A program made the position numbers and the translations under genes. DNA of 20,000 nt from an uncultured virus (IMG/VR IMGVR_UViG_650716090_000002). Taxonomy: Duplodnaviria; Heunggongvirae; Uroviricota; Caudoviricetes. Positions within the stretch are counted from its first letter, which is position 1. Each line of letters starts with the position of its first letter. Below the pieces are notes generated by a model that saw only the letters and a program-made list of their open reading frames with translations, had not been told where the DNA came from and did not search any database. The stretch is taken from IMG/VR virus record IMGVR_UViG_650716090_000002. One strand, given 5' to 3'. Of the stretch, positions 3,256 through 6,570 are shown one piece after another.

Positions 3256-4475
3256 TAGATCCCCCCTCTAAATGTTTTAACTATTGTTTTACTGTGCGCA
3301 TCGCTATATATTGCATATCTCAAAGCATCAAGAACATCATCATATTCTTTTAACGGTTCATCTTTTGTGCTATTAGGTTTCCACTTATACTGATAAATCT
3401 CATCAAAAAAGCGAGGAATTACTTCACGCTTGATAAATAACTTATTTTCTTTAAACTTTTTAGCAACATCTTCTATACCAGCGATTACTGCTTTTTTTGC
3501 ATTTCTTGCCTTTAGCTTTTCTTTTTTAAACCTAGCGACATGCTCTGGCCTTGCTGAGTCAGCCCAAAAGACTACATCGCCATATTTAGCTTTGAACTCT
3601 TTTGCTCTATCAACCCACCAATCGATTTCTTTGTACTGTTCTGATATGCCATCAACAAGATATTGATTCCCTTTGATGTCTTCGCCAATAATCACAATTG
3701 AACCGTAGTGGTCATAACCCCAGTCAACGCCAGCAAAATAACGCTCCATCTCTGGTAAGTTATCCACAATGTGAATATCTTTGTTGAAATCGCTATAAAT
3801 TGCACCTTCAGCAATTGTCCAAAGGCCTAAAATATCTCTATCGTAAAACTTACCGTTGGGAGTTGCTGATTTGATGTTCTCGATATATCTTTTTGAAAGA
3901 AACGTGTTGTCATCTAACTTAAAAGCAAAATCGATGATCATCTTGTCTTTATTATTGATATAGTCACGATTAAGCCAATGGTTGGGATTGTCTGGATTGC
4001 TATCCCATACTATACGCGCATCAGTCCCAGAACACCGTGAAATGATTTCTTTGAACACTACTTCGTTAGCAAGTGACGCCTCGTTTACATAAGCACCAAA
4101 AGAAGTAAAACCACGAGCACGTTTTAGTCCACTGATTGAACCAGTATAGACTTGAACGACTTTAACACCTCTAAAAGTGAAAGAGCCATGTTTATCATAC
4201 TTAGGTTCGAAACCATATTTATTGTATAGCTCTTGCAACACGTTGTTTTGAATACTTGTTGAAGACGTGCCAGCTAATATATACATTGGTTCATCTATGC
4301 CTAATCTATCCGCTATGGATCGCACACGGTCAAGCTCAGTTATAAACGTGTCATTATTAACAACAGTCTTACCTGCTCGCTTAGCACCATGCAACCCGCA
4401 AATAAACCAGTCGTGGTTCCAAATATAACTAAGCACTTCTAATTGTCTAGGTGTGTAGATATCAGATAGGCTCAT
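3255..4475 (-). CDS. terL: Terminase large subunit, PBSX family
   Basis: Walker A GAKRAGKT, Walker B-like AYVNE, DSNP coupling motif, nuclease motifs GVDWG and DDVLDALRY. Confidence 0.95.
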   Translation of the reverse strand: MSLSDIYTPRQLEVLSYIWNHDWFICGLHGAKRAGKTVVNNDTFITELDRVRSIADRLGIDEPMYILAGTSSTSIQNNVLQELYNKYGFEPKYDKHGSFTFRGVKVVQVYTGSISGLKRARGFTSFGAYVNEASLANEVVFKEIISRCSGTDARIVWDSNPDNPNHWLNRDYINNKDKMIIDFAFKLDDNTFLSKRYIENIKSATPNGKFYDRDILGLWTIAEGAIYSDFNKDIHIVDNLPEMERYFAGVDWGYDHYGSIVIIGEDIKGNQYLVDGISEQYKEIDWWVDRAKEFKAKYGDVVFWADSARPEHVARFKKEKLKARNAKKAVIAGIEDVAKKFKENKLFIKREVIPRFFDEIYQYKWKPNSTKDEPLKEYDDVLDALRYAIYSDAHSKTIVKTFRGGI

Positions 4476-4950
4476 CAGAAATAGCCTCCTTGATTTTATT
4501 CATCAAGTTCGAAATCTTATCGTCTTGTCCTTCATCGCCACCAACTTGTAATTTAAGTTTATCGATTTCAAGTTGCATTTTTTCTGCTTGTTTAGATGTT
4601 GGATAACGCTTGAGAATTTCAACTATCGCTTTAATAACTGTGTTATTATCAGGCTTTTTAAATATTCGATTAACTTCTCCAGTTATAGGGTTCATCATCA
4701 GGATTTCTTCTTCACGCTTACCTTTTGCGATGTCGGAAAGTATCGATAAAGCTTCAGTAGCTGTTAAAATATTTTCAGACTGCATCTTCTCGACTTGATT
4801 TTCAATATATGATTTTATCCCTACATTTCCCAACAATTCTTTAGATCGTTTGTTTGCATAATTTTCACTATAACCAGCCTTGATTGCTGATTGGTAAGCA
4901 TTCCCAGAAGCGATATACTCATCTGCGAATTGTCTTTGTCTTTCGTTTAT
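4462..4950 (-). CDS. terS: Terminase small subunit (162 aa if started at ATA 4950)
   Basis: Frame extends 38 codons upstream of the track start and encodes the typical TerS HTH N-terminus (NERQRQFADEYIASGNAYQSAIKAGYS). AAAGGAG RBS at 4966-4960; in-frame TAG at 4956-4954. Confidence 0.85.
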   Translation of the reverse strand: MNERQRQFADEYIASGNAYQSAIKAGYSENYANKRSKELLGNVGIKSYIENQVEKMQSENILTATEALSILSDIAKGKREEEILMMNPITGEVNRIFKKPDNNTVIKAIVEILKRYPTSKQAEKMQLEIDKLKLQVGGDEGQDDKISNLMNKIKEAISDEPI

Positions 4951-4977
4951 TTTCTATCACTCCTTTCAATGCATAAT

Positions 4978-5000
4978 AAAAAGCCACTCAATGAGTGACT
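4978..5000 (-). terminator. Intrinsic terminator closing the structured RNA, upstream of terS
   Basis: AGTCACTCA-T-TGAGTGGCT inverted repeat followed by a T run on the minus strand. Confidence 0.7.
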
Positions 5001-5078: not shown

Positions 5079-5182
5079 TAGGAACAGTCGGATTCGAACC
5101 GACACTATCTCATATAGGAAGCTAGCCTATGAGCACGTATATCTATCCACGTATCAGTATTCCTCACTGATTTATATTCCTA
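5079..5182 (-). ncRNA. tRNA-like module with acceptor stem, T-arm and three internal hairpins (non-canonical cloverleaf)
   Basis: TAGGAATA/TGTTCCTA stem stacked on GTCGG-TTCGAAT-CCGAC; internal hairpins ATCAGT/ACTGAT, ACGTG/TACGT and CTCATAGG/CCTAT(AT)GAG. Confidence 0.65.
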
Positions 5183-5392
5183 ACCACTTCCACCATCTTA
5201 CACAATAGGCTAGTCATCCTATTTATGTGTGACAATGTATGACACTGAAAGCATAGTCAACTCCACTCGGCATTTGCCCGTCAGCGGTTTTACCAATCGT
5301 CATTGGAAGGAATATGACTATCAACCTCAGTAAAAACCAACACGTCAGTACGTAACTGCCTTTCGGAATGTTGGGTAGCTCTTTCGAGCAGA

Positions 5393-5433
5393 CAACCATT
5401 GCACGAATCGAACGTGCGTCGCCAGTATGGTTA
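5393..5433 (-). ncRNA. Mini tRNA-like module (acceptor stem + T-arm, no D or anticodon arm)
   Basis: TAACCAT-ACTGGCGAC-GCACG-TTCGATT-CGTGC-A-ATGGTTG. Confidence 0.65.
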
Positions 5434-5469
5434 CAGCAAATATCTAAAGCGGTCTGTTTTTAAGACCTA

Positions 5470-5517
5470 TTGAGATAGCAGGAATCGAACCTGCGATACT
5501 TCCAATGATTATCTCAA
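5470..5517 (-). ncRNA. Mini tRNA-like module (acceptor stem + T-arm)
   Basis: TTGAGATA-ATCATTGGAAGTATC-GCAGG-TTCGATT-CCTGC-TATCTCAA. Confidence 0.65.
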
Positions 5518-5640
5518 CTGGTTCCCGTTGGGGTACCGTTCCAATTCAAAATAGTAAGTTCGATTTATTTATAAGTAATCGTCTAATCATATGTAGACCA
5601 GTTGTTAATTGTTATCTCTTCTTACTATTTCGATAATATA

Positions 5641-5660
5641 ATAATAACACGTATTATTAT
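5641..5660 (-). promoter_or_regulatory. Probable late promoter: extended -10 (TG-T-TATTAT) within a 20-bp near-palindrome
   Basis: ATAATAATAC/GTGTTATTAT directly after the arpU stop; no good -35, consistent with an activator-dependent promoter; predicted +1 (~5634) coincides with the first helix of the structured RNA. Confidence 0.55.
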
Positions 5661-5667
5661 GCATAAA

Positions 5668-6117
5668 CTATTCATTTACTGTATAAAAACTAGCCTCTTT
5701 CTCCACAATTAGAGAACCCTCTCGATACAGTTCCGCAAAGGCTAATAAAGCTATTTCTAGCTCATCATAATACATGCTCTCAGATATACATAATTCTGCA
5801 TAAATCATCTTATCAGATTTTTTATAATTACTTAGATACTTGTCGTATAAGATTTTTCTTCTTTCCGCTTCAAGTATATTGCTTACCGCTTGTTCAATTG
5901 CTTCAAGTTCGCTCTCTGCATCCACTCTAGTAATTGCCAATCTCTCAACTGGTTTACTAGGTGCGCCGTGAGCTTGTCTTGGCTCAAATGAATAAGTAGC
6001 TGTTATCTTTTGTTTGTCCACATCTTGAGCGATTCGTCTCCAACGTGGATATTCTCTTAGTTTACGCTTTGCATTTGCTTTGGTTTTCTTTTCGTCAATC
6101 TCTGGAAAAAACATCAA
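5668..6117 (-). CDS. arpU: ArpU-family phage late transcriptional regulator
   Basis: FPEIDEKKTKANAKRKLREYPRWRRIA N-terminus, C-terminal HTH ending ALLAFAELY; located before the packaging module. Confidence 0.9.
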   Translation of the reverse strand: MMFFPEIDEKKTKANAKRKLREYPRWRRIAQDVDKQKITATYSFEPRQAHGAPSKPVERLAITRVDAESELEAIEQAVSNILEAERRKILYDKYLSNYKKSDKMIYAELCISESMYYDELEIALLAFAELYREGSLIVEKEASFYTVNE

Positions 6118-6188: not shown

Positions 6189-6353
6189 TGTCTTATCGGA
6201 GTAGCTATACCTCTTTTCTTTTTTATTTTCGGACAGGCACACGATCCGCATTGAAATTCTCACGATGCCTTACTTAATTTCAGATAACCGATAATCTGAT
6301 TTAGATTAGTATTTATGGCGTAAGGAGACCTCCATTTTTTAATTTCGGTTAAT

Positions 6354-6394
6354 ACCAACCGCAGGAATCGAACCTGCGTGATACCTTTGTTGGT
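6354..6394 (-). ncRNA. Fourth mini tRNA-like module, upstream of arpU
   Basis: ACCAAC-AAAGGTATCAC-GCAGG-TTCGATT-CCTGC-G-GTTGGT; 17-nt T-arm identical to the 5470-5517 module. Confidence 0.65.
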
Positions 6395-6570
6395 TATAAT
6401 TCTTTAAGTGGCACAAATTTAAATTGTGGAAACTGTTCTGCTTCTTTACGTGTGATATGACGTGCTTTATTGATATTCATTGTCATGACTAAAAAACCAG
6501 CCCTACTTCTCCACAGAACGTAATAATTTTCATCTATTTTTGACTGCAACACTCCTAATTCTTCGTTCAC
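6394..6570 (-). CDS. Small phage protein, 58 aa, paralog of 7386-7604 (MNEELGVLQSKID...TRKEAEQFPQFKFVPLKEL)
   Basis: Translated by hand; GTGA coupling to the upstream gene; shares both termini with 7386-7604. Confidence 0.8.
   Translation of the reverse strand: MNEELGVLQSKIDENYYVLWRSRAGFLVMTMNINKARHITRKEAEQFPQFKFVPLKEL

Follow-up and report, generated by a model that had tools for sequence, protein, structure and literature searches.

Anticodon-less tRNA-like modules ahead of the late genes of Streptococcus phages as candidate RNA processing signals

The question addressed here is why a bacteriophage carries, between its late-gene regulator and its packaging genes, a series of short sequences that resemble parts of transfer RNA (tRNA) genes, and whether these are debris or maintained elements. 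The stretch of DNA that was analysed, referred to as the window, comprises 20,000 nucleotides (nt) of the IMG/VR record IMGVR_UViG_650716090_000002 and was identified as Streptococcus phage Javan384, a prophage of S. parauberis KCTC 11537, with 100% identity over the region (blastn). Nearly all genes in the window are on the minus strand and follow one another from right to left as a repressor/antirepressor switch, replication and recombination genes, the late regulator, terS, terL, portal and head genes. Between arpU and terS, about 700 nt are without an annotated gene but contain, on the minus strand, three modules (A, B and C) that an initial annotation had described as mimics of the top half of a tRNA; the sequence check found all three at the positions listed in Table 1. 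The reading we favour, and to which we give about an even chance, is that these modules act in cis, marking the points at which RNase P and RNase Z of the host would cleave the leader of the late operon.

Table 1. Position and description of the tRNA-like modules and of the neighbouring features in the window.
Feature	Position	Strand	Description
Module A	5470..5516	minus	Minihelix; 7-bp acceptor TGAGATA/TATCTCA, T-arm GCAGG-TTCGATT-CCTGC, discriminator A at 5470
Module B	5393..5432	minus	Minihelix; 6-bp acceptor AACCAT/ATGGTT, T-arm GCACG-TTCGATT-CGTGC, discriminator G at 5393
Module C	5079..5181	minus	103 nt; acceptor AGGAATA/TGTTCCT, T-arm GTCGG-TTCGAAT-CCGAC, discriminator A at 5079
Fourth minihelix (class 0)	6353..6394	minus	Acceptor ACCAAC/GTTGGT, T-arm GCAGG-TTCGATT-CCTGC, discriminator A
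arpU	5668..6117	minus	ArpU-family phage packaging/lysis transcriptional regulator; NCBIfam TIGR01637, 141.2 bits (cut-off 43.1); PHROG 248, "transcriptional activator"
terS	4462..4949	minus	Terminase small subunit, first late gene; Pfam Terminase_2, 83.4 bits; PHROG 51
Conserved leader	5545..5665	minus	Directly 3' of arpU; TATTAT-type repeats, then about 100 nt conserved (alignments)
Terminator-like hairpin	4974..5000	minus	AGTCACTCATTGAGTGGCT and T run; about 20 nt upstream of the terS ribosome-binding site (terminator scan)

The modules share a 7-base-pair (bp) acceptor stem stacked on a 5-bp T-stem with a TTCRANY loop and followed by a discriminator base, and the minimum free energy (MFE) fold of A, B and C, each computed separately, is the shape given in Table 1. 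In place of the D and anticodon arms, modules A and B have, as initially described, a short linker containing TGG, which is 15 nt long in A and 8 nt in B (CTGGCGAC), the latter module also having an A.A mismatch at 7:66. Both are therefore minihelices of acceptor and T-arm, and the description as a top half is appropriate for them, but not for module C. Here, 71 nt separate the acceptor from the T-arm, with U-A directly after the acceptor, and fold in the MFE model as a D-like arm and two more hairpins, one with an 8-nt loop and one with a long bulged stem, neither of which offers a readable anticodon loop. As modelled, module C is a long tRNA-shaped RNA with five arms, which is neither a top half nor a decodable tRNA. 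The long forms of module C in relatives (L005, L010, L078 and others) keep a hairpin with a UAGCU loop, which reads CTAGCTT in the window and TTAGCTAA or ATAGCTAA in relatives, while the surrounding stems are wholly different. A script scan for 5-bp stems with a T[TG]C[AG]ANN loop yielded six sites over the 20 kb. Four are on the minus strand (6377, 5494, 5417 and 5103) and fall within the two non-coding gaps, the first of them being part of a fourth minihelix overlooked by the initial annotation. This minihelix has a 10-nt linker (AAGGTATCAC) and begins at the stop codon of the open reading frame (ORF) 6394-6570, about 235 nt upstream of arpU. The fold of the modules, their minus-strand orientation and the position of A, B and C between arpU and terS are regarded as established.

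To describe the minihelices collectively, the covariance model R1 was built from 17 of them as a 48-nt design, with the copy at 6397-6350 as the only contribution of this window. R1 recovered module A with 24.1 bits (E-value 6.7e-5) and module B with 22.3 bits (2.4e-4); the fourth minihelix scored 67.9 bits, its copy having been in the model seed. No further match below E 2 was found in the 20-kb window, so that the modules are more than chance, and in the whole 37.5-kb phage R1 finds only the four modules. In three Streptococcus genomes, full-length matches were found only in G001, inside a prophage, all others being partial matches of the T-arm only. At E up to 0.001, full-length matches occur in 10 of 151 sampled Streptococcaceae species genomes and in 3 of 151 sampled Bacilli genomes, one of these three being the starting genome. 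In one Streptococcaceae genome (G021, contig 1, at about 321.2-321.6 kb; locus L137), four minihelices with divergent, unrelated sequences succeed one another at spacings of about 90-130 nt. All four have GG in the linker and are themselves followed by A-T, and by its sequence this looks like an independent array of the same design. Overall, the minihelices are present in phages of at least six Streptococcus species.

Parts of the gap were matched in 104 phage records, all of them from Streptococcus (blastn), and each of the 12 records inspected has a large unannotated gap downstream of the regulator gene or of a match to it, with packaging, HNH-endonuclease or other genes of the late region on its far side. 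When IMG/VR was scanned for the T-arm pattern of module C, at least 120 stretches were obtained, and an ArpU-based search for related loci in genome contigs yielded three. According to script scans, the T-arms form recurrent classes that appear in the same order along the gap; the uniform T-arm of class C results from the fact that these loci were gathered by an exact pattern match to the T-arm of module C. The region is strongly mosaic, with conservation concentrated in the modules and with inter-module spacers that are swapped wholesale between close relatives. In class A, the T-arm and acceptor are constant, whereas the linker measures 1, 6, 12, 14, 15 or 17 nt in minihelices, 39-53 nt in tRNA-sized copies, and 80-106 nt in others. 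The form with the 1-nt linker (L013, L016, L024, L026, L029 and others), common in many S. pyogenes- and S. agalactiae-type phages, is a nearly continuous 12-bp hairpin, TGGGACG-T-GCAGG...CCTGC-CGTCTCA-A. Its G2-C71, G3.U70, G4-C69 and A73 resemble the acceptor marks of tRNA-Ala; a G.U at 3:70 is found in 10 of the 22 distinct class A minihelices and in none of the window's own modules. Directly upstream of class B and class C minihelices (L019, L043, L005, L012 and others), a conserved hairpin of about 45 nt (AACCGCAAG...CAAGGGTCGCAACCTTGCTTGTGGTT) followed by AGT was observed, which, standing ahead of two different classes, forms a repeated unit of hairpin and minihelix.

That the stems differ while their pairing is kept, as first noticed within the window, holds across the alignments of the relatives, in which both the acceptor and the T-stem covary. 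In class B (17 distinct sequences), 93.1% of the cells are paired and 6 of 12 pairs have changed on both sides, giving a covariation score of 0.461 as opposed to 0.215 after shuffling, with none of 500 shuffles reaching the observed value and slid controls at or below 0.11. The 22 class A sequences are 100% paired with three compensatory pairs (0.186 versus 0.139 shuffled; 0/500 as high). Minihelices of classes 0, C and B with a 10-nt linker can be aligned without gaps as a common 48-nt design, in which 96.1% of the cells are paired and 8 of 12 pairs are compensatory (0.765 versus 0.241; again 0/500). These counts come from sequences related by descent and recombination and do not represent independent events; relatedness is lost in the shuffled controls and kept in the slid ones. 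For the fourth minihelix, the T-stem changes among six distinct relatives from GCAGG/CCTGC to GAGCG/CGCTC and GCACG/CGTGC, which is compensatory, and 15 long-form relatives of class C keep the acceptor, the T-arm and two D-arm pairs, with compensatory changes in T-arm and D-arm pairs. The stems of classes A and B also include G.U pairs, which pair only on the minus-strand transcript, and therefore a constraint at the level of RNA is indicated.

A second measure is the presence of an acceptor partner, defined as six contiguous pairs and counted over unique T-arm contexts, with the expectation taken from shuffled 3' strands; an earlier statistic (6 of 7 pairs, G.U allowed) was dropped, being too permissive in AT-rich DNA, where shuffled controls gave similar values. 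A partner within 24 nt was found for 31 of 50 contexts in class A (expected 4.4), 30 of 36 in class B (8.5) and all 7 in class 0 (2.1). For class C, which is mostly of the long form (41 of 76 contexts), the count was 18 of 76, with 11.3 expected.

Since an intact tRNA-Lys(UUU) gene occupies exactly the position of module A in the IMG/VR locus L041, which nearly matches Javan407 in the spacer downstream of this gene, in module B and in tRNA-Trp, the sequence evidence is that the minihelices are derived from tRNAs, and the GG of the minihelix linker aligns with the D-loop GG of this tRNA-Lys(UUU). Further real tRNAs were identified in the gaps of relatives by ARAGORN and Rfam, namely Trp in Javan383, Trp and Ser in Javan407, Lys in Javan443, and Leu in Javan271, where a 96-nt "Ile" call was also obtained. 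Among 60 of the at least 120 IMG/VR loci, ARAGORN made no tRNA call in 37 and a total of 26 calls in the other 23, of which 12 were "tRNA-???" with irregular anticodon loops, and the remainder Ser(gct) (six), Trp (two), "Ile" (two), and Lys, Tyr, Thr and "Stop(tta)" (one each). The last of these (L062:1797-1874, minus strand) and class C variants with the anticodon-like loop CATTAGA (L045, L107, L007) may be suppressor-type or non-decoding tRNAs. Modules are often only 1-4 nt away from real tRNAs or from one another, as are genes in tRNA operons, for example in L016, where a class C copy comes after tRNA-Ser, and in Javan383 and Javan407, where tRNA-Trp comes after module B.

Such an origin raises the possibility of neutral decay, in which the modules would be functionless tRNA pseudogenes with a deleted middle, whose remaining parts have not yet eroded or are spread by recombination. 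The initial annotation had itself named intact tRNA genes at these positions, or a lack of conservation of stems and T-loops, as observations that would speak for simple decay, and for module A the first was indeed found in L041, yet stems and T-loops are conserved and covary. Decay would also agree with the Trp, Ser, Lys, Tyr, Thr and Leu tRNAs in the gaps of relatives, the heterogeneous linker lengths, and damaged copies, such as module A of Javan383 and the 24 of 208 unique T-arm contexts that have no acceptor partner. However, compensatory changes preserve both stems in the truncated state, the 48-nt design with a 10-nt linker recurs in three classes with different stems, and the minihelices extend over at least six species and to divergent arrays in other genomes such as the one in L137. 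With stems and T-loops that many phages conserve and in which covariation is seen, with linkers that keep GG and with flanks like those of host tRNA genes, the sequences argue against simple decay, which we consider rather unlikely.

The linkers and flanks were evaluated in 68 unique minihelices with linkers of 1-21 nt. A GG is present in 53 of the 56 linkers of at least 4 nt, compared with a mean of 24.2 and a maximum of 34 in 1000 shuffles, and this as well as the base after the discriminator, which is T (U in the RNA) in 64 of 68, is difficult to reconcile with decay. The discriminator is a purine in all 68, T precedes the acceptor in 40, and none encodes CCA. The host comparison was made with one related Streptococcus species, G001, whose 28 tRNA genes have T after the discriminator in 27 cases, T before the acceptor in 16 and CCA in none; the flanks of the minihelices thus match those of host substrates of RNase P and RNase Z. 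The initial annotation had correctly reported that modules A, B and C lack CCA, but this is not a special trait, as Streptococcaceae tRNA genes normally lack it (0/28 host genes). All tRNA genes of this family are stated to be without CCA, with RNase Z cutting directly 3' of the discriminator (PMC8549757), and RNase P is described as acting on CCA-less precursors ahead of RNase Z (PMC1874595).

Known RNA families do not account for the modules. As the initial annotation had expected, ARAGORN reported no tRNA in the window, and no Rfam family matched there at the gathering score. At a relaxed threshold, the Rfam tRNA model aligned to module A with 22.2 bits (gathering score 29) with the D and anticodon arms deleted, and the tRNA-Sec model to module C with 17.9 bits versus 47. 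A canonical tRNA gene with D arm, anticodon arm, 7-nt loop and readable anticodon is not present in any module; the anticodon arm is missing from modules A, B and the fourth copy, a readable anticodon loop is missing from module C, and they cannot decode. Nor was a tmRNA found in the window, either by ARAGORN or by Rfam at E up to 10, and the comparison of 11 related loci with Rfam gave only tRNA matches. No description of these elements was found in Rfam or in the full-text literature searched, a scope that most subscription journals fall outside.

The whole 0.65-kb gap could instead be a single ornate RNA of the GOLLD/ROOL type, with the T-loops serving as modules for tertiary contacts. GOLLD/ROOL-like RNAs are known to lie near tRNAs in prophages, which would suit this locus, and a 701-nt region reaches -198.1 kcal/mol as opposed to -172.5 kcal/mol when shuffled (z -3.1, 20 shuffles). 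However, neither GOLLD nor ROOL matched in the window even at E up to 10, and no other Rfam family did so at threshold; in addition, each module folds by itself, and the modules stay in place where the spacers between them are replaced wholesale in close relatives. We regard a single large RNA as extremely improbable.

A role at the DNA level, in which the T-arm and 3' acceptor segments would be recombination joints or look-alikes of attachment sites, was also considered, as the region is strongly mosaic with its conservation in the modules, metagenome contigs break at module borders, and tRNA gene fragments are described as common integration scars (PMC9897764). Like the modules, these scars are partial tRNA-like sequences of T-arm and 3' acceptor strand associated with prophages, but according to this source they are one-sided copies of the end of a host tRNA at the prophage borders (PMC9897764). 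The modules, in contrast, have both acceptor strands, which covary, their G.U pairs are strand-specific, and they are internal to the phage, some 13 kb away from the window's repressor end, with the array between arpU and terS and not at a prophage end beside an integrase. Furthermore, none of the 3' acceptor strands TATCTCA, AATGGTT, TGTTCCT and GGTTGGT, that is, those of modules A-C and the fourth copy, occurs in the 28 tRNA genes parsed from G001. A role in DNA is consequently very unlikely in our view. A cos or pac site was rejected as well because the same modules stand before different packaging modules, either directly before terS or before an HNH endonuclease and then terS.

The position of the array is best understood from its neighbours. 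Regulators of the ArpU/RinA type (Ltr) are described as binding repeats just 3' of their own gene and activating the late promoter of terS (Quiles-Puchalt et al., PMC3753634), and the regulators listed there include homologues from S. pyogenes and S. suis (PMC3753634). By analogy, the conserved leader in Table 1 probably comprises the ArpU-binding repeats and the late promoter; its segment of about 100 nt is kept across phages of S. parauberis, S. pyogenes, S. agalactiae, S. iniae and S. pseudoporcinus, and the first module adjoins it. Because of this position and the analogy with ArpU/Ltr systems, modules A-C are most likely located in the 5' leader of the late operon. The terminator-like hairpin ahead of terS, with its stem-loop at 5000-4982, is kept in four S. 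parauberis phages (alignment). Just 3' of module B (5390-5330, minus strand), two GNRA-type hairpins, GCTC-GAAA-GAGC and CC-GAAA-GG, are enclosed by a stem CCAACA...TGTTGG followed by TTTTT. This could represent an internal terminator or a spacer with structure, and in close relatives a tRNA-Trp occupies the site. A 58-codon ORF (5223-5399) was rejected as a gene, as its start lies inside module B and it is broken by the tRNA-Trp insertion in close relatives. As for terS, its N-terminal region (4940-4965, minus strand) has no ATG, GTG or TTG, and the listed ORF begins only at 4836, while the Pfam Terminase_2 match begins at residue 2 when translation starts at 4950. The frame opens after a TAG as AAA-ATA-AAC, 9 nt downstream of a strong AAAGGAG ribosome-binding site, and the start region has the same sequence in Javan383 and Javan407, which suggests ATA or another non-standard start codon.

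RNase P, RNase Z and the CCA-adding enzyme all recognise a tRNA by its unit of acceptor and T-arm, and it is because the modules retain exactly this unit that we favour cis-acting processing signals. Under this proposal, the modules would be tRNA-derived RNA elements transcribed together with the minus-strand phage genes, in a mosaic array of real tRNAs and look-alikes between the ArpU/RinA-type regulator and the packaging genes. In the three minihelices of the window, a linker of 8-15 nt would have taken the place of both the D arm and the anticodon arm; its GG is a putative remnant of G18-G19 of the D-loop that would still dock on the T-loop, and a 12-bp helix of acceptor and T-arm with its elbow would remain. 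Host RNase P would cut the 5' end of each module (predicted minus-strand 5' ends 5516, 5432, 5181 and 6394) and RNase Z would then cut 3' of the purine discriminator (3' ends 5470, 5393, 5079 and 6353), which would sever the leader at fixed points and free the adjoining tRNAs. The products would be small RNAs of 40-47 nt, or 103 nt for module C, that are able to receive CCA, and selection would act on the top half because processing requires only that half. Of the two functions offered in the initial annotation, processing signals and decoys, the former is favoured by the tandem arrays with tRNAs, the host-like flanks, and the retention of helix, T-loop and GG, from which we infer it.

Several points weigh against this proposal, beginning with the relatedness of the sequences behind the covariation counts and with the placement of the array in the late leader, which is drawn from position and analogy. 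Linker lengths are spread from 1 to 21 nt, as repeated independent deletions would give, and no six-pair acceptor partner exists within 120 nt for 13 of 76 contexts in class C, 3 of 50 in class A, 1 of 36 in class B and 0 of 7 in class 0. Module A of Javan383 is damaged: its T-loop reads TTTGAAT, and its 3' acceptor strand has gained one nucleotide. The 24 public runs that contain parts of the stretch (at most 0.14 of the sampled words) consist of contigs from wastewater, aquatic or gut metagenomes, and contigs cannot show RNA ends; in the four runs examined, short contigs of related phages cover the leader, modules A and B, the 3' half of module C and the terminator, and contigs end at the module borders 5389/5392, 5519 and 5104. 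Finally, a terminator-like hairpin lies between the array and terS, and cutting would leave the late mRNA with a 5'-monophosphate, so that the benefit to the phage is not obvious.

The retained part is likewise what a decoy would need, being exactly the unit of acceptor, T-arm and elbow, and the released, CCA-tailed minihelices might act in trans as sponges for proteins that recognise the acceptor end or the elbow of tRNAs. Their targets would be defence toxins that modify the acceptor end or host tRNA enzymes, and binding them would serve to protect the phage or to re-tune its host at a late stage of infection. Several copies per phage behind a probably strong late promoter are consistent with this, as is the confinement of full-length minihelices to a prophage in the three host chromosomes. 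On the other hand, no binding partner is encoded nearby or indicated by any of the analyses, and the acceptor sequences vary widely between classes, for which reason a signal of shape fits better than the mimicry of one tRNA species. Moreover, the phage counter-measures to tRNA nucleases that we know of are full tRNAs. Judged from the sequences, decoys of this kind seem rather doubtful. A more specific version, which we think quite unlikely, is a new class of phage small RNAs that would be excised by RNase P and RNase Z, tailed with CCA, and serve as anticodon-less tRNA stand-ins soaking up proteins directed at the acceptor end or elbow; candidate targets are defence toxins modifying the tRNA 3' end or tRNA-dependent host enzymes, which would make it an RNA-based counter-defence expressed with the late genes.

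Returning to cis-acting processing signals, a structural parallel is found in synthetic minihelices and mascRNA, where a 12-bp helix of acceptor and T-stem with a T-loop suffices as a minimal substrate for RNase P, RNase Z and the CCA-adding enzyme. The former are laboratory constructs and the latter is a eukaryotic nuclear RNA, a product of tRNA-like processing, whereas here a natural family of bacterial viruses keeps the design, with a GG-bearing bulge in addition. With bacterial and phage tRNA operons, including tRNAs co-transcribed with mRNAs, the modules share the tandem spacing of 1-4 nt, the U after the discriminator, the lack of CCA and the same strand as the flanking genes, but they differ in that modules A, B and the fourth copy have lost the anticodon arm and module C a readable anticodon loop. 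A functional parallel is provided by the t-elements of plant mitochondria, which are described as RNase P and RNase Z signals for mRNA ends, proposed and for some shown (Forner et al. 2007, PMC1920247). Like the modules, t-elements have non-canonical tRNA-like folds with a conserved GGTTCRANYCC T-arm beside genes; they are part of longer transcripts, as the modules probably are, and the released element can bear a non-templated C or CCA (PMC1920247). However, t-elements are organellar and, as presented there, mostly similar to a cloverleaf, whereas the present elements belong to bacteriophages, have a short GG linker, form arrays with real tRNAs and are known from sequence alone.

The minihelix of acceptor and T-arm, a textbook laboratory construct, thus has a natural, selected counterpart, which phages of pathogenic and veterinary streptococci carry in arrays, and the analysis provides a concrete covariance model together with exact predicted cleavage sites. 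If the modules are processing signals, the tRNA punctuation known from organelles would also be used by bacteriophages to shape the RNA of the late operon, and it would be wrong to set phage "tRNA pseudogenes" aside as debris. Should the released RNAs act in trans, they would represent a new kind of phage small RNA.

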